64,000 nucleotides of DNA from Candidatus Dormiibacterota bacterium (GCA_963754015.1 CAVWEG010000004.1:262455-326454), one strand, 5' to 3'. Positions 7,620 to 60,308 are shown, counted from the stretch's first letter. A program made the numbers and translations. Notes: generated by a model not told the origin, from the sequence alone.

Positions 7620-8093
7620 TCAGTTCTCTCGGGAGCTGCGCGGCCCCGCGCCGCGATTGCCACGCAGGCCCACGTCCATAGCCGATGTCGAACGACGATA
7701 CGAGCCACGTGCGGGTTGCGCCCCAACCGCGGCAACGCGCCCAACAAGGCCTCGTCCACCCTTCGCATTCACGGCGACGCGTTCCCCCAGCGCCTGCTCG
7801 AGCCCGCGCGCGATAACCAGCAACACCACTCGATGCCGACAAGGATCGCCAGTCTCCAAGTTCAAGCGCAGCGCCGTCGCAGCAAACCGCAGCCACCCCA
7901 ACCCATCGGCGAGCGCATCGTCGTGCTGGGCGGCCCAGGCCAAGACGTCATCAGTGAATGCTTCGAAGGCCTGCGCATACCCCACCAGCTCCGCCCGATC
8001 ATCGTCGCCAAGACGCTCAGCCAGCGACCACACCTGCACATATGCTCGCTCCAACGCCACGAAGGCTTCGGGATTTGGTTCCACCAGCGCCAC
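7620..8093 (-). CDS. Hypothetical protein (157 aa)
   Basis: First gene of the minus-strand operon, 9 nt upstream of 7610; helical acidic sequence with no family recognised. Confidence 0.45.
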   Translation of the reverse strand: MALVEPNPEAFVALERAYVQVWSLAERLGDDDRAELVGYAQAFEAFTDDVLAWAAQHDDALADGLGWLRFAATALRLNLETGDPCRHRVVLLVIARGLEQALGERVAVNAKGGRGLVGRVAAVGAQPARGSYRRSTSAMDVGLRGNRGAGPRSSREN

Positions 8094-8730: not shown

Positions 8731-9100
8731 GGGAGCGCGGCGATTGGGGGGTTCAGGGTGGCTGAGGGTGCCCGTCTGATGGTGCCTGGGTGGGCAGATG
8801 GAAGCGTGGGGCTCTGCGAACGGGAGGGATTGAGCGCCTCTGGGAAATGTGGGGAGTGTCCGCACCATCAAGCTGAGGTCGCTCAACGTGTGCAATACCG
8901 AGGCACACTACTCGTCTCCAGGTCACTGCTCCCGCCGTTGAACCCCCAGTGGATCCTGGCTGATAAACGGGCCATCAGACGGTCGCTCTGCTGCCTAACG
9001 AACTCGAATGAATTCGCACTTCTCGTCCGATTCGTCGTCGCGTTGCCATACGGGCTATCCCCCTCCGTCGCGCGGAGCAGTCATCGACCGGTTCATGCGT

Positions 9101-22144: not shown

Positions 22145-23950
22145 TCATTCCTCGCCGGCCGGTCGTTCCTCCAGGGCGTGACGCCAATTCAAAAGAAGCT
22201 GCTCGATGCTCGGTCGGTCACCCTCCGACTCGGGGAGCGCAAGCTGGACCGCCTCGACCGCGCTGCCGGCGACTGCATCCAGTTCGCTCGCTGTCATGCT
22301 GAGGTCAAGCCCGACTTGGCGAGCCACCTCCTGTTGAAGGAAGGACAGTTGCGAGAGGTTGACTTGGTCCATCCAACCGGTCGGATATGTGACACCTAAG
22401 TCATACAACGACGGCGCTTCGAACTCCTCGGCACAAAGGGCGGCGAGCGTTTGCCGGCGACGGGTGGTGTCGGCTGCGCTCTCTGCGGGCCGAACATAGA
22501 CGAGGATTCTCCAGAGGAGCCGATGAGCCTCGTTCAAGGCCGTCACCCGGTTCGAGCGTGCTCGATCCCATTCGTGCAGTGACGTGATCGAACCGTCAGA
22601 GCGCTCCACGCGCACCGCAGCCACCTTCTCCATCATCCGCTCCGCCGGGATGTGTACGAGCACGTCTCCCGGCTCCAACCCCATTTGTCGTGCAACCCGA
22701 TCCTCAAAGGCACTGCGTTGCTTAGCCGTCCGATACCGATCGGTGATCGCCTTGACGTTGTGCCCAAGCTCGGCGTGCGTGGCCAGGTACGCGACCTTAT
22801 ATAGGCGACGCTCCAACAAGTCCGAACCAATACGTGCCGCCCTCGCGCGCCGCTGTGGGTCTGCCGTTGCTGGGATACCCAGGGCATCGGCCAGATCCGG
22901 AACGGCGAGCATTCGGAGCAAGAGGTCATCGGAGATAGCAATCCCTCGCGGCAGCCCCGGCGCATTGGCAAAGAGCATTCGTGTGGCAGGTCCAGACTTG
23001 AGACCGGTTCCTCGAGGGTCCGCTTCGTGAAGGCCGAGCTCTTGCACCGCTCGGCCAACCATGACCGACGCGGCATTCTTGGCGTGGTGAAAGTAGACTC
23101 GCTCGGCCAGTTCGTAACGGTAGGTGAGAAGTTTGATCACCTCGAACTCGACATCCGGTCGCGGCATTCCGTGCTTCTCAAGCCGCAATGCCATGCGGTT
23201 GATGTCGTAGCCTCCACTGATTGCTCCCATGGGTGACTTGGTGATGACGAAATACGTGAGGAAACGGTCACCGAGAGCAACTGGCATCCCGCAAGCTTCA
23301 AGGTCGCGCACGACATAATCGAGCAAGTCGGCGCAGACCGTGTTGCCCACGATGTCAGCGACGAACGGATATGTGAGCTTGGCGATGTCGGCCTCATTCT
23401 TGGCCGTGAGAATCCTGCCGAGCTCGTCAATTTCTCCGTCTGCGAGATCACGGTGTTGGTGTGCTCGCGCCAAGGCCCGGGCGATGCCCCCCGTCTTGAA
23501 GAGGAGCTGCCACCGCTCAGCGTCCTCATCGTGACGTGGGAACAGATTAAACTCGTCCTCAAGGGTATGCCCGAACGGGATATGTGGCAGATCGTGTAAC
23601 AGAGCAGCGAGTCGCGTCAGGCGGCGTGCCTTCGCGTCCATCGGGACCATGTATGTCGCGTCCGGGTTTTTCTCGAGAGCGTCGATGACGCGTTGCGCCG
23701 TATGCAATGTCCCGAGCGAATGCTCGAACCGGGTATGCAGCGCGGAACGGAAAACATAATTGCTAGACCCGAGCTGGCGCACTCCGGCCAGACGCTGGAA
23801 CTCTGGAGTGTCGACAATGTCAATCTCCACCCCGAAGAGGCGCACGTCCTGCGAGGACGCGAGCGTGAACAGCTTGGTTCGAACGTCGTGGGTGTAGGGC
23901 GATCGCGGCGGTGGGTCGGGACGGCGAACAGGGACTCCGGAGACCGACAT
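22145..23950 (-). CDS. HD-domain phosphohydrolase, SAMHD1/dNTP triphosphohydrolase-like (601 aa)
   Basis: IVDTPEFQRLAGVRQLGSSNYVFRSALHTRFEHSLGTLH and LAALLHDLPHIPFGH are the canonical H...HD motifs and the N-terminal FQRL box of this family. Confidence 0.85.
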   Translation of the reverse strand: MSVSGVPVRRPDPPPRSPYTHDVRTKLFTLASSQDVRLFGVEIDIVDTPEFQRLAGVRQLGSSNYVFRSALHTRFEHSLGTLHTAQRVIDALEKNPDATYMVPMDAKARRLTRLAALLHDLPHIPFGHTLEDEFNLFPRHDEDAERWQLLFKTGGIARALARAHQHRDLADGEIDELGRILTAKNEADIAKLTYPFVADIVGNTVCADLLDYVVRDLEACGMPVALGDRFLTYFVITKSPMGAISGGYDINRMALRLEKHGMPRPDVEFEVIKLLTYRYELAERVYFHHAKNAASVMVGRAVQELGLHEADPRGTGLKSGPATRMLFANAPGLPRGIAISDDLLLRMLAVPDLADALGIPATADPQRRARAARIGSDLLERRLYKVAYLATHAELGHNVKAITDRYRTAKQRSAFEDRVARQMGLEPGDVLVHIPAERMMEKVAAVRVERSDGSITSLHEWDRARSNRVTALNEAHRLLWRILVYVRPAESAADTTRRRQTLAALCAEEFEAPSLYDLGVTYPTGWMDQVNLSQLSFLQQEVARQVGLDLSMTASELDAVAGSAVEAVQLALPESEGDRPSIEQLLLNWRHALEERPAGEE

Positions 23951-28081: not shown

Positions 28082-29356
28082 ATGACCGAGACATTACTAG
28101 GGACATCTGAGAGGACATGCGAAGGGACCTTTCAGGGGACCCTCCGTCTGAAACCAGAACTCACATGCCTCGAGACCCACCCGTGGCTGACGTTCGTTCT
28201 CGACCTGAGTAAGGCGCAGTACCCGCTCTGGCTGGGTCTAGGAGAAGCCCGTTCAAAGATCGAACACATTGCCGGCGTTCCCATTCAGCCGGAATTCGCC
28301 GAGCGGCTCCACGAGGTGTTTCTAGCCAAGGGGGCCCAGGCAACGACAGCAATCGAAGGAAACACGCTCTCCGAGGAGCAGGTCCTCGAGCAGGTGCAGG
28401 GGCGCCTGACTGTCCCCCCTTCACAGGAGTACCTCAAGCAGGAGGTCAAGAATATCCTAGACGCGCTGAACCTAGTAGCGAAGCAGACAGTGCAGTCGCA
28501 TCGCTCAGCGGAGGTGCGGCTCTCCCCTGACCGGATCAAGGAATTCAATCGCCTGGTGCTCCGGGATTTGCCCCTGAACGACCCGGATATCGTTCCAGGC
28601 GAATACCGCGGGGACCGCCGAGTTGTCGGCATGTACCGGACGCCACCGCCCGGGGAGTGCGCACCCCTCATGGAGCTCTACTGTGACTGGCTGAACGGCG
28701 ACGATTTTCACACGGTGTCGGGCGATCTGGACCCTGTATCCATCGCGATTCTCAAGGCCGTAATCGCGCATATCTACTTCGTCTGGATCCACCCTTTCGG
28801 CGATGGGAACGGCCGAGCCGCGCGATTGATCGAATTCCAAATCTTGCTGGAAGCTGGCGTACCCCAACCGGCCGCTCACCTCTTGAGCAATCACTACAAC
28901 CAGACACGTGCCGAGTACTACCGGCAACTGAGCGCTGCCAGTGTGTCCGGGGGAAATATCGTGCCGTTTCTCACGTACGCTGTCGGCGGCCTCGTCGATC
29001 AACTGAAGGGCCAGATCGCTTGGATCCGCGAACAGCAAATGAAGGTGACCTGGGTCAACTACGTTCATGAGCAGTTTGCGAATGACTCGACGACAACAGC
29101 GGTACGTCGTAGGAAGCTCGTGCTTGCCTTGACCGAGCGTGATAAGCCGATGCCGCGAGGTTCGCTGCGCAAGCTGACGCCTCAGCTCACCGAGCTGTAC
29201 GTCGGAAAGACAGTCAAGACACTCGCTCGTGACTTGAATGTTCTGCTCGATGACTCGCTGATCGTCCGCGAGCGCGGCGGATATCGTGCCCATCGAGAGA
29301 TCGTCGCCGGTCTACTTCCGACCCGCCGCCGGGGGCAAGGTACACAGATCAGTTAG
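28082..29356 (+). CDS. Fic/DOC family protein
   Basis: HPFGDGNGRAARL is the canonical Fic motif HxFx(D/E)GNGRxxR; probable C-terminal winged-helix-like region. Confidence 0.9.
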   Translation: MTETLLGTSERTCEGTFQGTLRLKPELTCLETHPWLTFVLDLSKAQYPLWLGLGEARSKIEHIAGVPIQPEFAERLHEVFLAKGAQATTAIEGNTLSEEQVLEQVQGRLTVPPSQEYLKQEVKNILDALNLVAKQTVQSHRSAEVRLSPDRIKEFNRLVLRDLPLNDPDIVPGEYRGDRRVVGMYRTPPPGECAPLMELYCDWLNGDDFHTVSGDLDPVSIAILKAVIAHIYFVWIHPFGDGNGRAARLIEFQILLEAGVPQPAAHLLSNHYNQTRAEYYRQLSAASVSGGNIVPFLTYAVGGLVDQLKGQIAWIREQQMKVTWVNYVHEQFANDSTTTAVRRRKLVLALTERDKPMPRGSLRKLTPQLTELYVGKTVKTLARDLNVLLDDSLIVRERGGYRAHREIVAGLLPTRRRGQGTQIS

Positions 29357-30710: not shown

Positions 30711-32099
30711 ATGAATCCTTTACCTCCGCCGGCTGAAGGGCTATTAAGGTCCAGCAACCTCTCCGACGACGCCATCCCACGCACACCGCTCGGCACGACG
30801 CCGCCGCCGCGGCTCCGCCCAGGTCAATTCCCGCCTTCGTCTTTCGGGACCATCGACACCGGGCCACTACGCCACGACCTCTTCCGCCTCATTCGCAGGC
30901 ACCCCGAGCGAACTCGGCTTTGGCAGGCGCTCCATCTCAGCGCCGCCCGTGTCTTCACGGCTCCCAACGTGATCGCCGAGATGGACCGCGACCTGCCGAT
31001 GCATGCTGCGAAGGCAAACGTCGAGCTCGAAGTGGCTCGGACCCAATGGGAAACCCAATACCGACCGTGGCTCCGTGTCGTCGACGTATCCGACCTCGTT
31101 CCCGAAGTCGGGGACCACCCAGACGTACTCGCCGTGTACGCCCGGGGCAGCGACGGCCCTCTCGCCTTGCTGTCCGCCCTCCTTGGGGTCAGAGCATGGA
31201 CCGAAGACAAGGATCTCGGTGTCCTTGGAATCGGTCGGGAGCTCTGGCTTTCGCATGCCGTCGCCACCGTTGACGAGGCGCAGCTCTCTTCGGTCGGTGC
31301 CGTCGCATACATCGCTACCGCAAAGTCGATTGAAGTCACCGCGTCTCAGGCCGTCGCCCTCTACCGCAAGGCAGAGCTCACGATTGGCCGGCCCGCCACG
31401 CTCCTGCTGAGTGCGCTACTCGCGCTTGGCGCCGTGTGGTACCTGTGGGATGACGATCGGCGCAAGCTCGTGCTCGATTCCCATGTGATGCGTGGTCTTG
31501 GCTCAGCGACCGGCTCTTTGATGACAGTCGCCGTTGACATGCACACCCGTCACGAGGCAGCCAATGGGTTCCTGCAGCAACACCTCCGTGATGACCCTCG
31601 CCCTCCAACCATCCATATGCGCTTGGCGCGTGTTCTTGCGGGCGCGCGTCACCCACTAGCAGTCGAAGAAATCGCCCAGCAAGCATCGGTTAGCGCGGCG
31701 GTGGCGAGTGCCGTCCTCAACAATCACACTGCGTTCGTCAGCGATCCGTATGGTCGTTGGGAGCTTGGCTCGCTACTGACTCCCCGAGTGGAGGAGCCGC
31801 CACATTCCTGGACACAGGTCACTCAATTAAAGAGCCTCGCCCGCGCGAGTCTCGAGAGAACGTCGCTGCACGTAGGTTCCATCGGTCTACAGTACGAGGT
31901 CGACGACGTTGCTTGTCATGCCCTATTGATTCGTATGACTCAGACTGCGTCAGCAACAATCCGACGCGGTCGCGGTGAATTCGTCATTAGGGTGCGACCA
32001 TCAAACCCGACGTCCACTTCGATGACTGCGTCGGAATGTTGTCGTGGCCGAATCCCCTTCGGCGCGCCGGTCGCCTCGACGACGTTCTCGATGCTGTGA
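30711..32099 (+). CDS. Hypothetical protein with PIN-like N-domain, TM segment and winged-helix-like C-region
   Basis: FGTIDTGPL...NVIAEMDRDL...AWTEDKDL suggests PIN acidic positions; LLLSALLALGAVWYLW is a TM segment; PLAVEEIAQQASVSAAVASAVLNNHTAFV is wHTH-like. All from pattern only. Confidence 0.5.
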   Translation: MNPLPPPAEGLLRSSNLSDDAIPRTPLGTTPPPRLRPGQFPPSSFGTIDTGPLRHDLFRLIRRHPERTRLWQALHLSAARVFTAPNVIAEMDRDLPMHAAKANVELEVARTQWETQYRPWLRVVDVSDLVPEVGDHPDVLAVYARGSDGPLALLSALLGVRAWTEDKDLGVLGIGRELWLSHAVATVDEAQLSSVGAVAYIATAKSIEVTASQAVALYRKAELTIGRPATLLLSALLALGAVWYLWDDDRRKLVLDSHVMRGLGSATGSLMTVAVDMHTRHEAANGFLQQHLRDDPRPPTIHMRLARVLAGARHPLAVEEIAQQASVSAAVASAVLNNHTAFVSDPYGRWELGSLLTPRVEEPPHSWTQVTQLKSLARASLERTSLHVGSIGLQYEVDDVACHALLIRMTQTASATIRRGRGEFVIRVRPSNPTSTSMTASECCRGRIPFGAPVASTTFSML

Positions 32100-32174: not shown

Positions 32175-32405
32175 TCATGACCCCGTCAGCGGCGGCGCTG
32201 CTGAGATCAATAGTTCTGGTGGTAGCAGTTTCAGAGCACCCACAACCTCGATTCCAATCAACCTGCCGTTTGCGTCGAAGTCCAGATTCAGCATACCGCC
32301 AATCTTTTTAGGATGACACTTATATGTCGACTTGGCGTCACCCGGGCCGATATGCACCAGGGCGATGTATGCCGCGTCTACGGACGGGTCATAGGTAACC
32401 TTCAC
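32175..32405 (-). CDS. DUF2283-like small protein; predicted immunity/antitoxin for the Rhs C-terminal toxin
   Basis: MKVTYDPSVDAAYIALV...GRLIGIEV matches the DUF2283 signature. GTG start lies 1 nt after the Rhs stop. Confidence 0.8.
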   Translation of the reverse strand: MKVTYDPSVDAAYIALVHIGPGDAKSTYKCHPKKIGGMLNLDFDANGRLIGIEVVGALKLLPPELLISAAPPLTGS

Positions 32406-32406
32406 C

Positions 32407-35400
32407 CTATCCTCCTCCGATGAGCCAGCGAATATACGCTCGAGTCACATCGGCGATCACCGTGACAACAGTCCCTCCAGGGACCTTTCCGACAAAAATA
32501 CCCGAACGCGAATCAAAGTAGCCTGTCCTCAACTCGCCGCTGGCCGGATCATTATATGCAAATGGAGTGCGTGTCATGGCTGCGTCCACCTGAGCTTGAC
32601 TAATGCCTCGGTCGGCCATTTGCTGCGCCGCATGTGACGAGAGATCACATTCGGTGTCGTTGTGGACAAGAACATCGGAGCCGGCAATCCCGATGAAAAA
32701 GTCGTGATCTCTGTTAACTGTGAGGTCATACATCCACCCAGTCCCCGCCACAGACGTGAGTTGCACGACCGTCGCTAGCTGACCATTTGCGGTGAGTAAC
32801 TGGTCACCGATACGAAGATTGAACGCCGGCGTCCAGCTATGCGATGTGACATCCCAGAAGAGGTGATTGGCGGTGGAGTGCACCGTTGACCGCGCCGTTG
32901 TCGTGAGCACCGTGATGTCCATCAGATCGGCATCATCGTGAAGCCATAGAGCCGTGACGGTTTCAGACTGGATCTTCCCAGTCGCAGGATCGGTGGCCAT
33001 GACCTGGTCACCGGCCAACACTTGGCTGATAGGGATCGTGCTGCCGTCCGCCAGGAGCACCTCCGTGCCAGCCGAGAAACTCTCTCCGCCGCACATCGTC
33101 GGAGTGCCAGCGTCGTCACCGATATCTCCAGCTTCCCCGTCGGCTGAGGTCAGGGCATCCCAAGCTGCCGTAGCTCCCTCGTCGGCCGGCAAAAGGGCGT
33201 CAATAGCCGCCCCCACCCACTCGAACAACTCGGCACCTACGAAGCCCTCAGCACAAGCCACCGCCGCATTGACAAATGCGTCGCCCCAGTTGACCTTCCG
33301 TCCGCTCAGCACGTCGGCGATATCCGGGACAAGGCTAATTACAGCACCGACCGCACATCCCTCGAGAAGGAATTGTCCCGTCGGATCCGTGATGTCCACA
33401 GGGTCGCCCGCGGCATACGAGTACAGATCAGTACTTCTGCCGTTGAACCCGAGCGGGTCCTGGCTAATGAAACGAGCCTCGGATGGGCTGTAATACCGAG
33501 CTTGGTCGTAGTCCAACCCAGTGCCGTCATTCTGCTGCCCGACAAACTCGAATGGATTCGCACTGCTCGTTCCGTTCGTCGACGCGTTGCCATATGGATC
33601 GTAGGTGTACGTGGTCGGCACCGCCCCCGACGAGTTCCCCAACCCCACCGTGGTCCCCAACGAATCAGTCAGCAGTGACGACGTCCCGGTGCCGTCGGTG
33701 CGGGAGAATACCTCGTCGAGCCCTTGTCCGGTGAGCGTGCTGGCGGTCACGGTCCCTCCAACCAGGTTCTCGAGCACATTGCCGCCGTCCGTCAGGTAAT
33801 CCGTGGTCAAACCGCCTACAGTCGACGACTGACGTACTCCGAACGGGTCATAGCTGTACGTCGCATTGCTTACTCCGCTTATACCCGTCAGCTGTCCCCG
33901 ATCGTTCCAGCTGTACGTGTTGCTCGGATCGCTGGTCAGATTTCCATCGTTGTTGTAGTGCAGCGTCGATCCGTTCTGACTCGCGAGCTCGTTGTCAGCG
34001 TTATACGTCCACGTCGATGTCGTCGCCGTCGGCAGTGCGACCTGCGAGAGTGTCCCGCCGACGGAGGTACGTTGCCCATCCCCGTCGTACCCATACGTCA
34101 ATGTGCCCACCGTGGTCGAGCCCGATGTGTCGGTTATGCCGGTCACCTGGCTGGCAGCGTCGTAGCCGTACGTCTCAACAATTCCGTCAGGCAGTGTGAC
34201 CGTGCTGGGGCGCAGGTCCGCGTCTGGCACGATGCTAACACTCTGCGAACTGGTGCTTTCACCTGTCAGCGCCCCGGCGGCGTCGTAGCCGTACGTAACC
34301 ATTGAGCCGCTTGATGGTGTCATCGTGTGTCGGTTACCGTCCGCGTCATACGCGTAAGCGACCGATCCTTCGGGACCGCTATCAGAGGTGAGGCGATCGA
34401 ACCTGTCGTATCCGAGAGTGTAGGTGCCTGACGCTGAGTCCACGATTCCGGTGAGCCTGTTCCCTAGGTCATAGCTGTCACTGATCTTCGATTGCTGCGT
34501 TGTAGGTCCCGTAACTCCATAGCGAGCCGTCGCCAGGCGGTTCATCGGGTCATAGGTGAACTTGTCCACCGCCCCGTTCCCGTCCGTGACCTGCACAATG
34601 TTGCCGAGACCGTCATACACGTACGAAGTCGTGTTCGTCAGCGCGTCCGCAACGCTCCCTGCCTGATCCATGTCGTTCGGGCTCACGGTGGTCAGGTTGG
34701 TGTCTGGGTCTTCGACTAAGGTGACGTCGCCGTTAGGATTGTAGGTGTACTGCGTGGTGTCGCCCAACGCGTCTTCCACCGCGGTGACTTGGTTCATCGC
34801 ATCGACGGTGTACTGCGTGGTATTCCCATCGGGGTCCGTCGACTGCAGAACTCGCCCGCCGGCATCAACGTACTGCGTGGATACATTGCCGTCCGGATCG
34901 GCTACCGCCACCAAGTCGCCGTTGAGATAGCTGTAGTAGGTCACATTCCCAAGCGGATCCGTGACCGAGGTCGGCTCACCGTTCTGGGTGGTAGTGATCG
35001 TCTGGTTCCCGAGCGCATCAGTCGCGGTGATGACGCCGACTCCGCCACTGTCGTCTTGGTACCCAATGGTGCTGGTGTTGGTCAGCGGGTCTTCGACTGA
35101 TGCGAGTTGGTGGGATATGGGTTCGTACGTGAAGGTAGTCGTCTCGGCCGACGCGGTTCCGTACATCATCGTGATGGTCAGGACACCTCCATACGCGTCG
35201 TACGTGTAGTGCGCGTCACGACCCAACTGGTCGACGGCGTCGGTGACCTGATGCGTGGTCCCGTCCAACGTATATGTCGTTTCCTCTTGATCGGCAGTGC
35301 CCGATGCATCGGTGGTTGAGGTGAGATGTCCAGAGCTATCGAATGTCGAGACGCTTACATTGCTGTCTGGATCCGTCACAGTGGTCGCAGTGACGCTCGA

Positions 35401-38199
35401 GCCGCTGAGCGTGTAGTTGAACTGGTAGGTACCGGAGTCCGCGTCTGTCTGCAGATGGACGCGTCCATTTGCGTCGTACATCGTTTGGATCCACGTATCT
35501 AGCGTTGGGTCCTCTATAGACGCGATCTGCGTACAGGCGAGGTCGCCACCAGTGCACGTGCCCCAGTTGTACATCGTTGTCTTGGTAGCTGCATCCTCAA
35601 CGGACGTCAACCGCCCCGCGCCATCGTAGCCATACTCGACGCTTCGGCCCGTGTTGTCCGCGGCTTGCGTAATGCATGACGCCGGGTCCATCCCGGTCAC
35701 GCAACTACCCCATGTAAACGCGATCCAACGGCCGTCAGGCGAAGTCACCTGCTCTAGCTCGGAATTGGTCGCGTTCCGCTCTACACTGATTGAATTCCCA
35801 TACTCATCCGTGATCCCGGTGAGTGACGGATGGTACGTCCCGAACTGGTACTGAGTTCCATTGGGCATGGTGACGATGAGATCACTGTCGACAATCTCGT
35901 CAAGGGTGGCACCCGCATAGCTCGTTGAACCCGTAGCGTCATAGATATAGCTTGTCCCAGAGGGAGCAAAGGTCACGTCAGCCCCATCCGGCATTTGCAG
36001 GTCGTAGTTGCCGCTCGAATCGGGCGACACGAACATATCGAGGTTGTCGCTCTGGCTGTACCCGAATGCGCGTAGCTCTGGATCGCCCTGGCGGTATGAG
36101 CGGGTGACTGAGATGGGAAGGATGTCTGGCAATTCGAGATCGGTGTGGGTGCTATTCCAATTCCCGCTTTCGAGGTCCACAGGATCGCCGGCGGCGAGCA
36201 GGCTATCGACTAGTGGACAGAAGAGTCCGAGGATCGACCCCGCGAGTACGGTGCACAGCGGGTCCGACGAGATCGAATAGGACTCGATGTACTTGAGACG
36301 CAGGGTCGCCGGAGGGACGATATGCGCTGCATCCGCGCTGACCCTTCCCACCCCATACGCGTACCAGCCGGTGCCGTTCTTTGAGGCATCGTTGTCATCA
36401 AATTGGTAGTACGACCCCGGGCGCGCCTGCGTCAGGTTCGGGTAGATGATCTGGAGTCCAGGCCCGGCCACCACGCTGGCGTCCGACGGCTGCAATGTGT
36501 AGAAGAAGGACATGCCTGGGGCCAACGGAAGAGGCGTCCGCGTCAGCGGTGTCTCCGTCAACGAAAGCTGGTGAACGACCTTTCCATAGTGGTCGCGTAT
36601 CACTGTTCCTTTGGGAATCACGACTTGAAGCCCCGGAATCGCCGGCGATGAGTACACGATCTGCTTGGTCGTCGGCGACGCTATGGTGATCGCGTTAGCC
36701 AGATCGAGGGCCGGTAACCACACCGTCCATGGCAGCACCGCTGTGACGTGTGCCGTGACAACCACGCCTTCCTCGTAGGCGCCGTGATTTATGCTGTCGG
36801 TCGGCTCTGTGGCGTCGATCCACAGTTCCTGATGCCCCGCGGCGACCCCGGTCAAGAGAAAACGTCCCTGGCTGTCTGTCGTCGTTAGCTTCTTCCCAAT
36901 AGAGACGGACACACCCTGCAGCGGGAGCGAGTTCACATCTTCGATGACCCCAGCGAGCGCTGTAACGCTCTTCGCGGCCTGTAGCGGCGCAACCTCGGAC
37001 GCACGTCCCGAGCTGATCGGCGCGGGCGTCTCAGCCGCGACGAACACCTGGCTCAGCTCGGCATTCGCCGAAGAACTCACCGATCCCGCTGGCGTCACCA
37101 GAGTGACCGTGCCCGGGAGCGTTCCCCGCGGTACTCGACCGCTCAGCCTTGTCGAGGTCGCCGACACCACGTCGACATCTGTCGCGCCAACTCGAAGGCG
37201 GTCCAGTCCACTACTGCTTGCAAAGTGCGCACCTGTGACCGTGAGGGTGATCCGCGATCCACTCGTGGCTGCGCTGACAGCGCTGATCGTCGGGGCCTGA
37301 GCGGCGGTTTTATTGCTACCCGCACGGTGCATCAGACCACCGGTCGTTCTGCTGATGGAGAGTAGGTTGCCGGCGGCGTCGTAGTTGTATGTAGCCGTGC
37401 CTGCCGCGGTCGTCACTGTCGAGAGACGACCGGCGGCGTCATAGGTATACGTCGCCCCAGTTCCCACTACCGTGAACGTGGCCACGATGTCGCCCCACTC
37501 AACTGCGGTGGACAGGGTGGCGCCATATGACTGCGAGCCTGTGCTACTCGTGACCTGGTAGGCGCTCTGAACGTTGTTCAGGAGACTGGTCGGCGTCGAC
37601 TGATGCGCGCTGTTGTGCGTGTACCCGGCCGTCTGCGCAGAGATCGTTGGCCCAGAGTTCCACCCGATCCCGGCCACCACTAACTCGATTGCCTGCGCTG
37701 TCGCGCTCGTTGAACCACTGCTCGGTGCCGTGCCGCTGCTCGAACTCGCTCCTGCATCCACGCCCAGCGGGGTCGTCGGACTGACTCCCGCGAACTCCTG
37801 CACCGATTCCACGATCGTTGCCGACGCACTCGCATGTACCGTCACCGAAGACACCGCTGACGCGTCCGCCGCGTAGAACATGCCGGTCACGTTGGTGCCC
37901 GACGCCTTGGTCAAGACGGTGGCGAAAGTGTCCCCCGCCGAGTCAGTCACCGCAGGCGAGCCGAAGCTGCTCACACCCCGCAGACTCGCAGTGACGACGA
38001 GCAGGTCCCCGGCTGAGCTCGTGATTGTCGCCACGAGCGTCGCGGACTGGGTCGTCTCGGTGGCTCCAACCTCTTGCACCTGGGCGATCCCTGATGCCTT
38101 GACTGCCGACGCGCCGGATGCGAAGAAACTCACAGTTACGACCGAGGCCGCCGCGATCGCGCTGCCGAGAGCCCGCCAACGCCGCTTCTGCCTTTGCAT
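32407..38199 (-). CDS. Rhs/YD-repeat polymorphic toxin (1930 aa): signal peptide, shared N-domain, IPT/TIG-like and CarboxypepD_reg-like domains, YD-repeat shell, Hint domain, C-terminal toxin
   Basis: Dozens of YD repeats (YTYDAAGRL, YGYDGAGRL and others). Shell-plug motif DPVDLESGNWNSTHTDLELP. Core end YDQARYYSPSEARFISQDPLG...GDPVDITDPTGQ. Hint domain and short variable C-terminus. Confidence 0.95.
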   Translation of the reverse strand: MQRQKRRWRALGSAIAAASVVTVSFFASGASAVKASGIAQVQEVGATETTQSATLVATITSSAGDLLVVTASLRGVSSFGSPAVTDSAGDTFATVLTKASGTNVTGMFYAADASAVSSVTVHASASATIVESVQEFAGVSPTTPLGVDAGASSSSGTAPSSGSTSATAQAIELVVAGIGWNSGPTISAQTAGYTHNSAHQSTPTSLLNNVQSAYQVTSSTGSQSYGATLSTAVEWGDIVATFTVVGTGATYTYDAAGRLSTVTTAAGTATYNYDAAGNLLSISRTTGGLMHRAGSNKTAAQAPTISAVSAATSGSRITLTVTGAHFASSSGLDRLRVGATDVDVVSATSTRLSGRVPRGTLPGTVTLVTPAGSVSSSANAELSQVFVAAETPAPISSGRASEVAPLQAAKSVTALAGVIEDVNSLPLQGVSVSIGKKLTTTDSQGRFLLTGVAAGHQELWIDATEPTDSINHGAYEEGVVVTAHVTAVLPWTVWLPALDLANAITIASPTTKQIVYSSPAIPGLQVVIPKGTVIRDHYGKVVHQLSLTETPLTRTPLPLAPGMSFFYTLQPSDASVVAGPGLQIIYPNLTQARPGSYYQFDDNDASKNGTGWYAYGVGRVSADAAHIVPPATLRLKYIESYSISSDPLCTVLAGSILGLFCPLVDSLLAAGDPVDLESGNWNSTHTDLELPDILPISVTRSYRQGDPELRAFGYSQSDNLDMFVSPDSSGNYDLQMPDGADVTFAPSGTSYIYDATGSTSYAGATLDEIVDSDLIVTMPNGTQYQFGTYHPSLTGITDEYGNSISVERNATNSELEQVTSPDGRWIAFTWGSCVTGMDPASCITQAADNTGRSVEYGYDGAGRLTSVEDAATKTTMYNWGTCTGGDLACTQIASIEDPTLDTWIQTMYDANGRVHLQTDADSGTYQFNYTLSGSSVTATTVTDPDSNVSVSTFDSSGHLTSTTDASGTADQEETTYTLDGTTHQVTDAVDQLGRDAHYTYDAYGGVLTITMMYGTASAETTTFTYEPISHQLASVEDPLTNTSTIGYQDDSGGVGVITATDALGNQTITTTQNGEPTSVTDPLGNVTYYSYLNGDLVAVADPDGNVSTQYVDAGGRVLQSTDPDGNTTQYTVDAMNQVTAVEDALGDTTQYTYNPNGDVTLVEDPDTNLTTVSPNDMDQAGSVADALTNTTSYVYDGLGNIVQVTDGNGAVDKFTYDPMNRLATARYGVTGPTTQQSKISDSYDLGNRLTGIVDSASGTYTLGYDRFDRLTSDSGPEGSVAYAYDADGNRHTMTPSSGSMVTYGYDAAGALTGESTSSQSVSIVPDADLRPSTVTLPDGIVETYGYDAASQVTGITDTSGSTTVGTLTYGYDGDGQRTSVGGTLSQVALPTATTSTWTYNADNELASQNGSTLHYNNDGNLTSDPSNTYSWNDRGQLTGISGVSNATYSYDPFGVRQSSTVGGLTTDYLTDGGNVLENLVGGTVTASTLTGQGLDEVFSRTDGTGTSSLLTDSLGTTVGLGNSSGAVPTTYTYDPYGNASTNGTSSANPFEFVGQQNDGTGLDYDQARYYSPSEARFISQDPLGFNGRSTDLYSYAAGDPVDITDPTGQFLLEGCAVGAVISLVPDIADVLSGRKVNWGDAFVNAAVACAEGFVGAELFEWVGAAIDALLPADEGATAAWDALTSADGEAGDIGDDAGTPTMCGGESFSAGTEVLLADGSTIPISQVLAGDQVMATDPATGKIQSETVTALWLHDDADLMDITVLTTTARSTVHSTANHLFWDVTSHSWTPAFNLRIGDQLLTANGQLATVVQLTSVAGTGWMYDLTVNRDHDFFIGIAGSDVLVHNDTECDLSSHAAQQMADRGISQAQVDAAMTRTPFAYNDPASGELRTGYFDSRSGIFVGKVPGGTVVTVIADVTRAYIRWLIGGG
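32410..32658 (-). other. C-terminal toxin domain of Rhs (83 aa), DUF4258-like
   Basis: LSSHAAQQMADRGISQAQVDAAM resembles the H-A-x-x-R-M-x-x-R-G-I start of DUF4258, a family classically paired with DUF2283. Confidence 0.6.
32659..33093 (-). other. Hint (pre-toxin HINT) domain of Rhs (145 aa)
   Basis: Starts CGGESFSAGTEVLLADGSTIPISQV and ends DFFIGIAGSDVLVHN, the Cys1 and terminal HN signatures of Hint/intein-fold domains. Confidence 0.85.
37450..38090 (-). repeat. Shared N-terminal domain module (Rhs copy)
   Basis: About 79% aa identity by hand count over ~207 aa to 41860..42500, with long identical DNA runs such as CTGATGCGCGCTGTTGTGCGTGTACCC. Confidence 0.85.
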
Positions 38200-38202
38200 C
38201 GC

Positions 38203-41200
38203 TCAGTGCCCTCGCAACGAATAGTGGGTGCTTACCTGGGTTGAGGTAAGCGCCGAGTTGTAGACCGCAAGTTCGTCGAGGCCGCCGGACCAGGCGTACA
38301 GCGTTGGCCCTGAGTAGTAGGGGGCGTAGCCAAGCTCTAACCCGACGGCATTCGCGGTGCTCGGTGTTGTTGCAAACGACTGCGGCGATCCCAAGCTACT
38401 CCCATCCAAATACGCAGACACCGAGGTGCCGTTGTACGTAACGACGAGGTAATGCCAGGCACTGTCGATATCGGTGCCGCCTGGGTATGCAAATTGCACG
38501 TCGTTGCCTCCCGTGATCACGTCCAGCCCTGCCGACGATGTGGCAATGGCGAATTCCTGTCCAACCCCGGTCATGACCGTTGGACCCCACGCCACAATTT
38601 CGCAGTAGCTTGTCGTCGCACACGAGGTGGTAGACGCAAGATTCACCCAGACTTCCACGGTGCGTGCGCTGTTGCCCGTCGGCAGCGAGGTGGGGTCAGT
38701 CGTAAGCGTCGTCGCCGAGCAGCACGCCCCATTCAAGGTAATCGCCGGATCCGTGCCCACAGCACCCGGTTGGTCGGGGGTAACTCCGTTGCCTCCGTCG
38801 AAACGGCCCTCGAACTCCGTTGACGACGAGTCCGCGAAGACGGGTCCGTGTGCTTCCGAGAAACGGTAGTACGGACCCGCACCGTCGGCAATCACCGCAC
38901 TCGCGTAGGTCGATGACACTCCTGCCGGCGAGGACGAGTTCGTTGATGTTGCGGTCGGCCCTGAGCCCCACGCGTTCGTGGCAGTGACCGTGAACGTGTA
39001 CGCCACGCCTCCCGCGAGTCCGTCGATCCGCGCGGCAGTTTGCGTACCCAACACATACACGGCATTGGCAACGTGCCCACCGCCCGTGGCTTGGACGAGG
39101 TAGTAGTTGATCGGAACCCCTCGAGGTCCGGGCACGCCCCACGACACGGTGGCTGCATTGGATCCTCCGTAAGCGCCGTGCACCAACATCGGTGCCCCAG
39201 GCTGGGAATGCCCGCTTTGGGCGAAGTGCGTCGCGATCGCCGACCCGCTCAACACGGCGGGATAGACAGCCACATCGTCCAGCCCACTATTCGCGCCGAG
39301 CGGCTGGTCGCACCCGCCGCAGTATACCAATCCACCGATGACCAAAGGCCCTTGCGTCGTCGTGAGCGCGGGACTGACCGCCGCGCTACCAACCAGCTGC
39401 CCGTCGAGGTAAGCGGTCGCCGTCGTGGTCCCGTTGTAGGTCACATCGAGAAGGTGCCAGCTCCCATCGTTCACTGGATGAGACGGCGACCAGTTATAGC
39501 TGTGCCCATTGGTGTAGATCCCGAAGGACCCCTGGCCGTAGACACTCGAGTTGCTGACGACCAGTGACAGCGACTGATCTGTGCCTGTACCGCCGTAGCT
39601 CAAGACAGTTTGATACGCGTCGCTCGTTGTGCGGATCCAGCCTTCAAGCGTCACAGCTGACCCCGCAGTGGGCTCGCCGGCCCCTACGAGATATGTGCCG
39701 ATAGTATTCCCGTTCGGTTCCACTGCAGCGTCGCCGTCGGAGCTCACTGCCCCTGCAATGCCACTGACAAACCCGCTGCCAGCAAGTGCGTGGTACGGGA
39801 CTCCCAACGATGTGGTTCCCGTCGAATCGGTCATTAACGGACCGCCGCTGTCATCGAGGCGGTAATAAAAGGCCGGGCTGTCTCCCAGAATGGTGCTTGC
39901 ATATGTTGTCGCGCTACCGGTTGGCGTGTGGGCACTCGATGCTCCAACACTCCCCGAACCAAATGGGTCGATCCCATGCACCTGGAAGGTATAAGACGTC
40001 CCTCCCTTCAAACCTTTCAGTGTTGCGGATGTTGCCGAACTCGCCACAGACGTTGAGTTGCGGGCCGTACCGCCGATGTATGCCGTCACGACATAACCCT
40101 GTACTGTCGGCTCAGTTCCTGGAACGGTGGCCGTCGACGCCGTCCACGAAACTGTTGCTTGGTTGCTCCCGCCGGAGACGACCGCGGTCACGCTCCCGGG
40201 AGCAGACGGCACGGTGTTCCCGCTCGCCGTGAAGTGCGCGAGAATCTGGCTCGAGCTGAGTGCAGCTGGGTAGATCGCCACCTCATCCAGCCCACTGTTG
40301 CTCCCTTGCGGTGGATCGCACCCACCGCAGTACACGAGCCCCCCGATCGCGAGTGGTCCGACGGTCGTAGCGAGGGACACCGATCCATATGCAGTCCCTA
40401 CCGACACTCCGTCCATGTAACCCGTCACAGTCGAGCCGTCATATGTGACGTCGAGGAGATGCCAGTTGCCATCGTCCACCGGCCGCGCTGGTGTGAACCA
40501 GTACGCGCTACTGTCGGTCACCACACCGAAGTCGCCGCCGCCGTACGCTAAGTTGTTCGATGTCATCAGCGAGAGTGACTGGCCGCTAGCAGTGCCGCCA
40601 TAGCTCAGCACGGTTTGCTGGCCGGCGCTCGTTGTTCGAATCCAGCCTTCCAGTGTTACTGGCGAGGTCCCGGTTGGCTCCAGAAGCGGGCTGAGGTCAC
40701 TCCCCACGACATTCCCATTGGGCTCCAAGGCAGCGTCGGTATCACTACTGAGCGCGCCACCAATACCAGTTGTGGTGCCGGCGCTGGCCGACGCCGGATT
40801 CGCACTCCCAGAAGAGTCGGCCATCATTGGCCCGCTGTCGTCCAAACGGTAATATGCCTTTGGACTATCAGCCAGAACCGTGCTCGCATAGGTCGTTGAG
40901 CTGCCCGTCGGCGTGTGCGAGCTCGAAGTTCCTGCCGTACTAGGCCCGAACGCGTTCACCGCGACCACCTGGAAGGTATACGCCGTGCTTCCCTTGAGTC
41001 CAGTTAGGGTGGCGCTCGTGGCAGTGCTGCCAACTGAGGTGGCATTGCCCGCCGCACCACCCACGTAGGCGGTGGCGACATACCCTTGCACGGCGGCTTC
41101 GCCGCTCGGGACCGCTGCGCTCGATGCCGTCCAAGTGACCGTCGCCTGGTTGGCGCCCGAAATCGCTGCCACACTCCCCGGCGCCGTCGGGACTGTGTTG

Positions 41201-42624
41201 CCGCTCGCTGCGAAGTGGCTCATGATCTGACTAGAACTCAGCGCGCTCGGGTAGAGCGCTACCTCGTCAAGCCCGCTGGTGCTCCCTTGGAACGGGTCGC
41301 AGCCGCCGCAGTACATCAGGCCACCCACGTCCAGTGAACCGGCGGTCGTGGTGAGCGTCACCGAACTGATCCCACTCCCGACCGCGACCCCATCGAGATA
41401 GCCTTCGAGGGTCGTTCCGTTGTAAGTGACGTCGAGCAGGTGCCAATTACCATCGTCGACAGGGCGAGAGGGTGTGAACCAGTAGAAACCGCCATCGGTC
41501 ACCACACCGAAATCGCCGCCGCCGTAAGGCTGGTTGTTGCTAGTCATCAGCGAGAGTGACTGGCCGCTTCCGGTGCCGCCATAACTCAGCACGGTTTGCT
41601 GTCCGGCGCTCGTCGTCCGAACCCATCCCTCTAATGTCACCGCTGCTGCTCCGGTTGGCTCTCCCGCCGTTCCCGTCTCGGTGCCGACCAGATTCCCATT
41701 CGGCTCGGCCGCAGTGTCACTGTCGCCGCTCAGCGCCCCCGCAATACCGTACGTGAAGCCGCTGCCGTATGTCCCACTCCGCCCATTTCCGGAGGAATCG
41801 GCCATCACCGTGCCGCTACTCTCGTCGAGGCGGTAGTAGAACGAGGGAGCGTCGCCAACGACCGTCGCCGCGTACGACCCGCCCTTGAATGTGGCGACGA
41901 TGTCTCCCCAGAACGTCGAGGCGGACAGCGTTGCTCCGTATGCCTGCGTTCCCGTGCTGGCGGTCACCATGTATGCGCTCTGCACGTTGTTCAACAAGCT
42001 CGCGGGCGTCGACTGATGCGCGCTGTTGTGCGTGTACCCAGAGGTTTGCGCAGAGATCGTCGGTCCAGAGTTCCAGCCGATCCCCGCCACGACCAACTCC
42101 ACCGCCTGTGCCGTGGTCGCCGTCGATCCGCTTGCGGGGGCTGTGCCCGTGGAAGTCGCTCCCGCGTCGACATCCAACGGTGCGCTCGTCCGAACGCCGG
42201 CGAACTCTTGGACTGACTCGACGATCGTTGCGGATGCGCTCGCGTGCACCGTAACCGAGGTCACCGCCGGGGCGTTGGCGACATAGAACATCCCCGTGAC
42301 ATTCCCCCCTGTGACCTTTGTCAGCACCGTCGTGTAGGCATCACTCGCGGAGTCCGTTACAGCGGTTGCTCCAAACGAGCTCACTCCGCGCAGGCTTGCG
42401 GTGACCACCAGCAGATCACCGGCAGTGGTGGTGACGGACGCTGCCAACGTCGTTGACTGCGTACTTTCCGTGGCGCCGACCTCCTGCACCTGCGTGATCG
42501 CTGACGCCGCAACCGGTATTGCAAGAGCGCCGGCGGTCACGCCGATGAGTGAGGCGAGCGAGAGAGTTCCTACAGTACTCAGCGCAATCCGACGACGCCA
42601 CGGGGTGGACGTAAGTCTCGCCAT
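38203..42624 (-). CDS. Giant secreted LamG/FN3 modular protein (1473 aa): shared N-domain + 4 LamG-like + 3 FN3-like modules
   Basis: Signal peptide MARLTSTPWRRRIALSTVGTLSLASLIGVTAGALAIPVAASA. Repeated blocks YYRLDDS...LEGWIRTTS...DDGNWHLLDVTY...GLDEVAIYPAALS (LamG). Each is followed by P-APGSV...ATVSWTAS...YTFQV (FN3). Stop lies 3 nt before the Rhs start. Confidence 0.9.
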   Translation of the reverse strand: MARLTSTPWRRRIALSTVGTLSLASLIGVTAGALAIPVAASAITQVQEVGATESTQSTTLAASVTTTAGDLLVVTASLRGVSSFGATAVTDSASDAYTTVLTKVTGGNVTGMFYVANAPAVTSVTVHASASATIVESVQEFAGVRTSAPLDVDAGATSTGTAPASGSTATTAQAVELVVAGIGWNSGPTISAQTSGYTHNSAHQSTPASLLNNVQSAYMVTASTGTQAYGATLSASTFWGDIVATFKGGSYAATVVGDAPSFYYRLDESSGTVMADSSGNGRSGTYGSGFTYGIAGALSGDSDTAAEPNGNLVGTETGTAGEPTGAAAVTLEGWVRTTSAGQQTVLSYGGTGSGQSLSLMTSNNQPYGGGDFGVVTDGGFYWFTPSRPVDDGNWHLLDVTYNGTTLEGYLDGVAVGSGISSVTLTTTAGSLDVGGLMYCGGCDPFQGSTSGLDEVALYPSALSSSQIMSHFAASGNTVPTAPGSVAAISGANQATVTWTASSAAVPSGEAAVQGYVATAYVGGAAGNATSVGSTATSATLTGLKGSTAYTFQVVAVNAFGPSTAGTSSSHTPTGSSTTYASTVLADSPKAYYRLDDSGPMMADSSGSANPASASAGTTTGIGGALSSDTDAALEPNGNVVGSDLSPLLEPTGTSPVTLEGWIRTTSAGQQTVLSYGGTASGQSLSLMTSNNLAYGGGDFGVVTDSSAYWFTPARPVDDGNWHLLDVTYDGSTVTGYMDGVSVGTAYGSVSLATTVGPLAIGGLVYCGGCDPPQGSNSGLDEVAIYPAALSSSQILAHFTASGNTVPSAPGSVTAVVSGGSNQATVSWTASTATVPGTEPTVQGYVVTAYIGGTARNSTSVASSATSATLKGLKGGTSYTFQVHGIDPFGSGSVGASSAHTPTGSATTYASTILGDSPAFYYRLDDSGGPLMTDSTGTTSLGVPYHALAGSGFVSGIAGAVSSDGDAAVEPNGNTIGTYLVGAGEPTAGSAVTLEGWIRTTSDAYQTVLSYGGTGTDQSLSLVVSNSSVYGQGSFGIYTNGHSYNWSPSHPVNDGSWHLLDVTYNGTTTATAYLDGQLVGSAAVSPALTTTQGPLVIGGLVYCGGCDQPLGANSGLDDVAVYPAVLSGSAIATHFAQSGHSQPGAPMLVHGAYGGSNAATVSWGVPGPRGVPINYYLVQATGGGHVANAVYVLGTQTAARIDGLAGGVAYTFTVTATNAWGSGPTATSTNSSSPAGVSSTYASAVIADGAGPYYRFSEAHGPVFADSSSTEFEGRFDGGNGVTPDQPGAVGTDPAITLNGACCSATTLTTDPTSLPTGNSARTVEVWVNLASTTSCATTSYCEIVAWGPTVMTGVGQEFAIATSSAGLDVITGGNDVQFAYPGGTDIDSAWHYLVVTYNGTSVSAYLDGSSLGSPQSFATTPSTANAVGLELGYAPYYSGPTLYAWSGGLDELAVYNSALTSTQVSTHYSLRGH
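41860..42500 (-). repeat. Shared N-terminal domain module (LamG-protein copy)
   Basis: Paralogous to 37450..38090, as described in that entry. Confidence 0.85.
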
Positions 42625-42710
42625 TCACCATCCTGACGGCGCGACAACGTGGTCACGCCCCATCACCGCCATGGGAACGCATCCCTCGGTTTCGGCCGAG
42701 CGAGCGCAGC
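42588..42710 (-). repeat. 123-bp segment (first 13 codons plus 86 bp of upstream leader of the LamG gene) duplicated at 59446..59568
   Basis: 122/123 identical to 59446..59568 by hand alignment; the single difference is at the start codon. Confidence 0.9.
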
Positions 42711-58249: not shown

Positions 58250-58690
58250 TGTGGCGACCGGACTCCCGCTCAACCAGGGGGCTCGACGCTGTGATGGATG
58301 CCGGAGATCACGCGCTGAACAGGCTCCAAAAGTTCTCGATGCCATGGGTATGGACGCGGCCACGCACATGCGCCTCGGAGTGGTCGATGACCTCATGGGT
58401 GTAGTCCTGCTCAAGGCCACGATATGACGCGAACGCGTCTGTGTAGACGATAGAGCCAGGAGCAACGTTGGTCCCAACCTCGGAGCGAAGCACATGGCCG
58501 GTACGCGTCGGAACCATCTTGGCGCGGACTTCGCCGTCGCGCACTCGTGGCTCGAGCCACGATCTTGCCCGAAGGCCGGATTCCTCACCAGCTCGCACTA
58601 TCAGAAGGGTTGCGGCGGGCTCGACCGCTGACGCTCTCCAAACCAGTTCTAAAGGGACTCTAGATCGCCGGAGGGTGATCACTGTGTGAG
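58250..58690 (-). mobile_element. IS1595-family (ISXO2-like DDE) transposase remnant, truncated and frameshifted
   Basis: IVYTDAFASYRGLEQDYTHEVIDHSEAHVRGRVHTHGIENFWSLFSA, then a stop. The family pattern continues after a frame change (VISGIHHSVEP). No intact N-terminus or terminal inverted repeats identified. Confidence 0.6.
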
Positions 58691-59080: not shown

Positions 59081-59350
59081 CTAGCTTTCGTCAAGTTGGT
59101 CCTCGACCGGCTTACCCGATATTCCCTGTCTCACAAAGCCGGTTCGTCGATTGATGATAATAGGCTCTCCTCCCGCGAGGGTATCGCGTATGTTGCCGCT
59201 CGCAATGAATTCGCTGGTGTTATAGCCCACTACCCAGCAATGTGCATTGCCAGTGACAGTCGTAATCGCGAGGGCATCGGGGACCTTGACTTGGATTGCG
59301 TTCTGGAGAAATTCCTCCGCCAGCAGTCTTGCCTGCTCCTCAGTAACCAT
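59081..59350 (-). CDS. Orphan immunity protein, YrhB/Imm35-like
   Basis: MVTEEQARLLAEEFLQN...NAHCWVVGYNTSEFIASGNIRDTLAGGEPIIINRRTGFV matches the remembered YrhB-type immunity pattern (gWvF-y-s..yl.tgd....l-G-gPiiVdk-tG). The ATG overlaps the TGA of a short upstream toxin-tail ORF. Confidence 0.7.
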   Translation of the reverse strand: MVTEEQARLLAEEFLQNAIQVKVPDALAITTVTGNAHCWVVGYNTSEFIASGNIRDTLAGGEPIIINRRTGFVRQGISGKPVEDQLDES

Positions 59351-59445: not shown

Positions 59446-59568
59446 TCCGACGACGCCACGGGGTGGACGTAAGTCTCGCCAGTCACCATCCTGACGGCGC
59501 GACAACGTGGTCACGCCCCATCACCGCCATGGGAACGCATCCCTCGGTTTCGGCCGAGCGAGCGCAGC
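59446..59568 (-). repeat. Second copy of the LamG-gene leader/5' end, start codon mutated to CTG
   Basis: 122/123 identical to 42588..42710. 59482 is G where 42624 is T, turning ATG into CTG. Reads LARLTSTPWRRR, then diverges to a stop. Confidence 0.9.
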
Positions 59569-59724: not shown

Positions 59725-60308
59725 TTGAACATTCGCCGCAAGATCGGCGTGGGGACAATTACGTTCGTCGCAACTCTGGTCGCGTTCGGGGCATCGTCCC
59801 GACTCGCGCGTCCGGGCAATCGTTCTCGGTCGCCGCGACCACCACCGCCACGACCAGCTCAGCCACGGACATGCTGAACGTGCCGCTCAGTTCAACGCTG
59901 CCGGCTGGGGACTTGCTACTCGCCACGGTATCGATCACAGGTCCGGCCGATGGAGACGACTGGGACCCCGGGATCACCTTCTTCAGCAACACTACCTGCA
60001 CGCTGCCCTTTCTGGGGTCCAGCGCCTACACCTCCTATGACGTCATTTCGTACAACGACGGCAGCAGGACCACCGCTACCATGGTGGCTGTCGAGTTCAA
60101 CGTTGCGGTGAAGTGCATGATGGTCAACGTGGCCGGTGGCAACGCCTCATACGCTGTGAGCGTTGACGACGTTCATCCATCCAGTGCCGGGACATTCGGA
60201 CTTCTCGAAGACAACGCACCCACCCATGCCAATACCACAGGTGAGAACATCGCCGCGACCGCCTTTGATGGCCCCTACACCGGGGTTCGCCTGGACGTTG
60301 CGAGCTAG
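59725..60308 (+). pseudogene. Secreted protein gene with the signal peptide and mature part in different frames
   Basis: AAGGAG upstream of TTG 59725 gives MNIRRKIGVGTITFVATLVAFGAS (signal peptide), then runs to a stop at 59874. The mature-looking part (QSFSVAATTTATTSSATDMLNVPLSSTLPAGDLLLATVSITG...) is in the frame of ORF 59871..60308. Confidence 0.45.

Follow-up and report, generated by a model that had tools for sequence, protein, structure and literature searches.

Why should two neighbouring proteins with unrelated bodies begin with the same domain? The question is raised by a pair of genes in a 64,000-nucleotide stretch of a Candidatus Dormiibacterota bacterium genome (GCA_963754015.1, CAVWEG010000004.1:262455-326454), the whole of which was analysed and is called the window below, with positions counted from its first letter. 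Here a large protein built of LamG and FN3 domains is encoded directly upstream of an Rhs toxin, and in both the signal peptide is followed by a copy of what we call the N-domain. Our data support the view that the N-domain is a genuine autonomous module common to two translationally coupled secreted proteins, and show that it is not special to this pair, belonging to a huge uncurated family. We propose, as a tentative reading to which we give slightly less than an even chance, that it is a foot by which both proteins bind non-covalently to a surface or a glycan, most probably on the envelope of the cell that makes them. The features on which the argument turns are these:

38203..42624, minus strand: LamG/FN3 gene, 1473 amino acids, comprising signal peptide, N-domain, three LamG-FN3 units and a final LamG (list of open reading frames (ORFs), translation, Pfam)
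42499..42624, minus strand: signal peptide of the LamG/FN3 protein, codons 1-42, read from the sequence by eye, ending ...PVAASA and followed by ITQ
41878..42498, minus strand: N-domain, LamG-type copy, codons 43-249
38200..38202, minus strand: spacer of 3 nucleotides between LamG/FN3 stop and Rhs start, within the junction ...CAC TGA gcg ATG...
32407..38199, minus strand: Rhs toxin gene, 1930 amino acids (ORF list, translation, Pfam)
37465..38088, minus strand: N-domain, Rhs-type copy, codons 38-245

The 1473-residue protein had been said, from the sequence alone, to stop 3 nucleotides before the start of the 1930-residue Rhs protein, and the TGA-gcg-ATG junction confirms this. A Shine-Dalgarno-like GAGGG lies about 10 nucleotides 5' of the Rhs ATG, and the two genes are translationally coupled. 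Pfam finds four Laminin_G_3 domains (E 1.8e-57) alternating with three fn3 domains (E 1.4e-24) in the first protein. The second runs from signal peptide and N-domain through one RHS repeat, a TIG domain, a CarboxypepD_reg-like region, a DUF6531 plug and the Rhs shell to a core end (DPLG..DPTG), a PT-HINT domain and the C-terminal toxin; RHS_repeat is matched in 12 stretches (E 7.9e-55), together with DUF6531, TIG, PT-HINT and, weakly, DUF4258 at the C-terminus. The Rhs N-terminus reads as basic and then hydrophobic, ending in A-x-A/G, and in each protein the N-domain, of about 205 amino acids, begins directly after such an end. The DNA encoding the two signal peptides is just 40-47% identical, in line with the earlier claim that they are unrelated, and both can be read as ordinary Sec-type signals. 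Neither PAAR nor LXG is among the Pfam matches of the Rhs protein, no wall-binding, LysM, CWB2, SLH or sortase family is among those of either large protein, and no secretion-system gene was recognised in the 10 neighbouring ORFs scanned. The locus is best read as an operon for a Sec-dependent polymorphic toxin of the WapA-like Rhs kind, consisting of a LamG/FN3 lectin-like protein, the Rhs toxin and a presumed DUF2283 immunity gene. As a type, a Sec-dependent Rhs polymorphic toxin with its immunity gene is already known.

Comparison of the two N-domains gave 74% identity by BLASTP over 228 amino acids including the edges (E 9e-105) and 78% by MAFFT; over the QVQEVG...VATF core (202 and 203 amino acids) the proteins are 79.7% identical, close to the 79% that had been estimated by hand. 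When both proteins were searched against the window by tblastn, their mutual homology was confined to the N-terminal segment, and the bodies downstream are unrelated, as the sequence-only reading had held. Its long identical runs of DNA did not survive: the two copies are 71% identical at the nucleotide level, with a single exact run of 35 nucleotides (near 42039) and a next longest of 14. Synonymous divergence between the copies is saturated (dS 2.36) and the ratio of nonsynonymous to synonymous divergence (dN/dS) is 0.06. For orthologues the ratio is 0.07-0.08, and its full range is 0.06 to 0.11; purifying selection acts on both copies. An ORF at 59871..60308 had been offered as a possible, weak third relative of the domain and was rejected, the profile-profile match being negligible (hhalign probability 0.26% over 14 columns).

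The LamG-Rhs pair is kept in three genomes, namely the window and two metagenomic contigs, L001 and L015, in both of which the LamG-type and the Rhs-type protein each begin with the N-domain. In L015 the genes end and start at 7997 and 8001, again with a gap of 3 nucleotides, and the Rhs protein is 86% identical to that of the window over 1850 amino acids. In a tree of N-domains the Rhs-type copies of all three genomes fall into one clade and their LamG-type copies into a second. Since the copies group by gene and not by genome, the duplication is older than the three genomes and the copies have not been homogenised since. Recent gene conversion or recombination between the two N-domains is ruled out by the saturated dS, the 71% nucleotide identity and the tree topology. 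The Rhs-type N-domain of the window is 91-92% identical to those of L001 and L015. Measured against L001, the LamG protein of the window has 83% identity over its N-domain and 41-59% over its body, and the Rhs protein has 92% over its N-domain, 84% over the TIG region and 90% over the shell, with a C-terminal toxin that is not alignable. The N-domain is thus the best-conserved segment, set against lectin arms and toxin tips that are variable. An anchoring or partner-binding role for the N-domain is plausible, being favoured by this top conservation across three genomes. We also noted that the LamG/FN3 gene is frameshifted in L001 (10001-14378) and in L015 (3575-7997), at different positions, and is intact in the window; these frameshifts could be errors of long-read assembly, or the lectin partner may have become a pseudogene independently in each contig.

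Outside the pair, the N-domain has close relatives (57-66% identical) at the front of a PKD-CHAP wall hydrolase and of further secreted proteins. One of them (L008) carries two tandem N-domains, three PKD domains, a CHAP domain and lectin-like repeats, and another (L010) an N-domain with PKD. Two more, L002 with two N-domains and L009 with one, each continue into an unknown body; that of L002 has no Pfam match and no match among PDB sequences, and by eye it looks possibly like a G1 peptidase. The loci L002 (9803-13363) and L009 (2452-5295) are near-identical and differ by one N-domain unit. The tandem units of L002 share 99.8% of their DNA sequence, and the difference reflects a tandem duplication or a loss that happened very recently, or else an assembly artefact.

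How far the domain reaches beyond these proteins was measured with a profile (A1) seeded by the 12 hits that a word-indexed search drew from 5.8 billion proteins, with both window copies among the seeds, and scored against 1.84 billion cluster representatives (50% clustering). It matched 29,909 representatives at E<=1e-3, 13,381 at E<=1e-10 and 934 at E<=1e-30. Copy number and position were taken from the best 159 proteins, in which 108 copies are N-terminal, 193 internal and 65 C-terminal, with one to seven per protein. Two is the commonest count (90 of the 159); this list of best matches is skewed to multi-copy proteins because copy scores add up. A further 361 copies align over more than 170 profile positions, and in these the core residues are conserved at 91-96%. 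Across the family the most constant positions are D49 (96%), N53 (90%), Y72 (91%), E98 (92%), G101 (96%), D109 (91%) and W197 (91%). The core pattern of D49, E98-[FY]-x-G101 and W197 defines the family, and both window copies are full-length members. Among 43 sampled proteins the fusion partners are extracellular or carbohydrate-active, and include FN3, TIG, Big_7, Rha78A-type Ig, Kelch/galactose-oxidase, the chitobiase C-terminal domain, RGI lyase and apiosidase; RHS repeats accompany the N-domain in 4 of the 43. Members occur in Actinomycetota, Acidobacteriota, archaea and phage-like contigs.

For all its size, the family has escaped curation. The window N-domains have no match in Pfam-A 2025, NCBIfam 20, PHROGs v4 or PDB sequences, which bears out the first impression that the domain fits no known family. 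A protein made of seven tandem N-domains (P0034) likewise matches no Pfam family at E<=1 and no NCBIfam family, and the names given by depositors to family members refer to other domains, never to this one. The sequence-only reading was to be abandoned if the domain proved to be a common, annotated one found on many unrelated proteins. Common it is, given its 29,909 representatives on many unrelated bodies; annotated it is not.

An AlphaFold2 model of one N-domain, the LamG-type copy, built on the 12-sequence alignment, is all-beta with 14 strands and is confidently predicted (predicted local distance difference test 95.3, predicted template modelling score 0.92). Foldseek found no solved structure resembling the whole of it: against the PDB the best E-value was 0.013, query-normalised template modelling (TM) scores were all <=0.34 and none exceeded 0.5. 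Only a GOLD-domain match in that search, covering about 100 residues or half of the N-domain, reaches a probability of 0.89. Against the predicted viral structures of BFVD, 66 matches had E<=1e-3, reaching 8e-13, with TM scores of 0.7-0.86 at 12-26% identity, and among them are entries named 'minor tail protein' from Mycobacterium and Gordonia phages. By these models, the N-domain fold is predicted also in minor tail proteins of tailed phages. The closest homologue outside the clade (P0003; 47% identity, 231 amino acids) is a stand-alone protein with no signal peptide that sits in tightly packed phage-like gene clusters, adjoining a weak tail-fibre PHROG match; another member, P0012, adjoins a gene with Big_7 and polysaccharide lyase. 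The likeness to actinobacteriophage minor tail and uncharacterised Caudovirales proteins is, however, one of predicted structures only: there is no match to a PHROG family, tblastn with the window N-domain and with a further member (P0011) gave no match in 50,697 phage genomes, and a scan of IMG/VR with P0003 gave none. The two halves of the N-domain align weakly to each other (hhalign E 0.0011, probability 20%), which makes an ancient internal duplication possible.

What, then, might such a module do for a lectin-like protein and a toxin made from one operon? We propose that the N-domain foot would bind a glycan of the cell envelope and send the LamG/FN3 and Rhs proteins to the same place, most likely the producer's envelope, much as the N-terminal wall-binding region of WapA works. 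The variable LamG arms could then take hold of adjacent cells, and the Rhs cage could deliver its exchangeable toxin. We favour this explanation because the module is autonomous and promiscuous and is linked to carbohydrate-active, surface and phage tail proteins, and because it is the constant part of an operon whose two large products show no other recognisable anchor. That the domain binds, what it binds, and that it anchors its bearer rather than recognising a target are inferences. Several points weigh against the proposal. Any ligand is hypothetical, and the searches gave the N-domain neither a characterised homologue nor a solved structure. Much of the wider family lies in diderm Acidobacteria and in archaea, so the domain cannot be a dedicated Gram-positive wall anchor. 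All Rhs-type copies carry glycine at the D109 site (window residue ~146, PLGVD, and likewise in L001 and L015), where the LamG-type copies keep aspartate, as does 91% of the wider family; the two kinds of copy may therefore not bind identically. Conservation of the N-domain fits protein-protein assembly equally well.

The closest known systems are the WapA-type Rhs/YD-repeat toxins, which in Gram-positive bacteria are defined by a signal peptide and an N-terminal wall-anchoring region, and whose placement in the wall has yet to be settled (PMC12704120). The Rhs protein described here resembles them in its apparent signal peptide, non-Rhs N-terminal region, DUF6531 lid, Rhs shell, DPxG core end, exchangeable toxin and adjacent presumed immunity gene (PMC12704120). 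It differs from them in that its N-terminal module is an uncurated domain and not LysM, CWB2 or DNRLRE, in that a PT-HINT precedes the toxin, and in the upstream, translationally coupled LamG/FN3 protein that bears a paralogous N-module. Carbohydrate-binding modules and LamG/ConA-like beta-sandwiches offer a second likeness, being all-beta autonomous modules that are repeated in large extracellular proteins beside carbohydrate-active domains; in contrast to these, the N-domain has no sequence or fold match to any such structure (Pfam, Foldseek PDB, PDB sequences). What is new here is a head module from a large, uncurated and structurally unsolved family, and the presence of a duplicated copy on a lectin partner that is translationally coupled to the toxin, an arrangement conserved across genomes.

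Alternatively, the N-domain could be an assembly module, its copies forming homo- or hetero-oligomers that join the separately secreted lectin and Rhs toxin into a lectin-decorated particle. We consider this unlikely, though worth weighing. Translational coupling favours matched stoichiometry, and in neither protein is any other part as well conserved as the N-domain. Pairs occur in tandem within one chain in L002 and L008, two is the commonest count among the best 159 proteins, the halves of the domain give a weak two-fold repeat signal, and phage tail proteins are usually oligomeric. However, any interface is hypothetical, single-copy stand-alone proteins and seven-copy arrays occur as well, and the apparent preference for pairs comes from a list biased to multi-copy proteins. 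In a more specific version, the LamG/FN3 protein and the Rhs cage would dock by their paralogous N-domains to make an Rhs-based analogue of the Streptomyces umbrella (Umb) particles on a phage-tail-derived fold. Umb particles consist of a secreted polymorphic toxin decorated with lectin subunits, and the concept in common is a toxin encoded beside lectin-domain proteins for cell recognition. We know of no component that is homologous between the two; the locus has no ALF repeats, UmbA or UmbB, and a complex of its products is hypothetical. Such heterotypic docking seems to us quite doubtful.

In likelihood we would place between assembly in general and heterotypic docking the idea that the N-domain is a target-recognition head, which would attach to a receptor of the victim cell in the manner of phage receptor-binding proteins. 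That the fold is common to predicted phage minor tail proteins speaks for it, as do relatives fused to antibacterial bodies (CHAP, Rhs). Receptor-binding parts normally diversify, however, and here it is the LamG arms (41-59%) and the toxin that vary; the N-domain is the least variable segment, with dN/dS never above 0.11. Because the N-domain does not diversify, target recognition is the less likely role for it.

More doubtful again is an enzymatic role, for instance in modifying or cleaving glycans, or a role as a cleaved pro-domain or intramolecular chaperone. The family-wide conservation of acidic and polar residues (D49, N53, E98, D109, E175 and D176) would suit an enzyme, but in the window copies N53, E175 and D176 have given way to other residues, the Rhs copy additionally lacks D109, and no enzyme family is matched by sequence or fold (Pfam, Foldseek PDB). 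The arrays of up to seven copies, and the placement of copies inside proteins or at C-termini, are what is usual for a binding or spacer module and argue against a pro-domain. Least probable of all, and in our view highly improbable, are the sequence-only reading's built-in recombination substrate for swapping bodies and its trafficking role, taken as routing of both proteins to a special exporter. In favour are the one exact run of 35 nucleotides and the single unit by which L002 and L009 differ, which shows gain or loss of tandem N-domains. Against, the 71% DNA identity, saturated dS and separate LamG-type and Rhs-type clades leave no sign of conversion or swapping since the three genomes diverged, and routing is hard to reconcile with ordinary Sec-type signal peptides, with the 10 neighbouring ORFs scanned, in which no secretion-system gene was recognised, and with N-domains that are internal, C-terminal, in seven-copy tandem or, in phage contexts, without a signal at all.

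If the N-domain is just another module for adhesion or spacing, this is an ordinary polymorphic-toxin operon, and the locus itself is unsurprising unless the assembly hypothesis is true. As a surface-binding foot, the domain would be a concrete candidate for holding or aiming the Sec-exported Rhs toxins of uncultured actinobacteria. A fast-evolving lectin and a polymorphic toxin that are conserved together on a shared foot suggest a modular design with a constant base, variable arms and a variable warhead. The family itself, with about 30,000 representatives, a confident predicted fold and neither a Pfam, NCBIfam or PHROG model nor a solved structure, is ripe for curation and structure determination.

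The C-terminal half of the Rhs protein and the gene that follows it show the features of a polymorphic toxin:

35968..36189, minus strand: DUF6531, the Rhs N-terminal plug or lid, codons 671-744 (Pfam E 5.1e-12)
32656..33036, minus strand: pretoxin HINT (PT-HINT) domain, codons 1722-1848, ending ...LVHN (Pfam E 1.5e-13)
32410..32643, minus strand: variable C-terminal toxin, codons 1853-1930, weakly DUF4258-like
32175..32405, minus strand: DUF2283 ORF, 76 amino acids, presumed cognate immunity gene, starting 1 nucleotide past the Rhs stop (Pfam E 3.5e-12)

The Rhs core end reads ...RFISQDPLGF...DPVDITDPTGQF, a conserved DPxG...DPxG end that precedes the variable toxin. Among the window, L001 and L015 the C-terminal toxin is not alignable, whereas the Rhs shell is 90-92% identical. 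In L015 the toxin diverges directly after the LVHN of the PT-HINT domain and a different gene lies 3' of it; such replacement of toxin and downstream gene together is typical polymorphic-toxin behaviour. DUF4258 and DUF2283 form a toxin-immunity pair in Pfam neighbourhoods, and the locus resembles PT-HINT polymorphic toxins with such pairs in its PT-HINT ending in HN, its short variable toxin, its small presumed immunity gene and the replacement of the pair in a sister genome. It differs from them in that its DUF4258 match (E 0.0028) is below threshold, at 18.4 bits under the Pfam cut-off of 25 bits, and this weak label of the toxin tip leans mainly on the adjoining DUF2283 gene. The DUF2283 protein is presumed from gene position to be the immunity factor. 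In the literature searched we found no paper naming both DUF4258 and DUF2283.

Upstream of the operon, the start of the LamG/FN3 gene takes part in a repeat that recurs beside a second immunity gene:

42588..42710, minus strand: leader copy 1, the 5' leader and first 12 codons of the LamG/FN3 gene, a 123-nucleotide direct repeat
59446..59568, minus strand: leader copy 2, with the LamG ATG changed to CTG, joined abruptly to about 95 nucleotides of unrelated sequence that runs into the Imm35 gene
59081..59350, minus strand: orphan Imm35 immunity gene, 89 amino acids, downstream of leader copy 2 (Pfam E 6.5e-9)

Repeat search and alignment put the two leader copies at 98-99% identity, 17 kb apart. 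The leader is 94% conserved 5' of the LamG gene in L015 and is not conserved in L001. It looks like a recent duplication or a deletion scar, or like the capture of a promoter that would keep a toxin-less immunity gene expressed. An RNA element or riboregulator was considered and rejected, as there is no Rfam match, the fold z-score is -1.29 and the leader is not conserved in L001. Between a secreted ORF of 209 amino acids and the Imm35 locus lies an ORF fragment (58308-58682, minus strand; ...VYTDAFASYRGL...HTHGIENFWSLF) which, on reading by eye, looks like the remnant of an IS1595-type transposase.

A further fragment at 8919-9053 (minus strand), contained in no long ORF, is 47% identical to the end of the Rhs core (Rhs residues 1535-1592) and is probably the remnant of another Rhs gene or an orphan toxin module. 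Close to the operon, the window encodes an HD phosphohydrolase (22145-23950, minus strand; PF01966 and PF19276) with relatives of about 50% identity in Acidimicrobiales and Ilumatobacteraceae, a Fic-domain protein with a weak Rv0078B-antitoxin-like tail (28082-29356, plus strand) and a 462-residue ORF with no family match (30711-32099, plus strand), a neighbourhood that may be a conflict- or defence-rich island.

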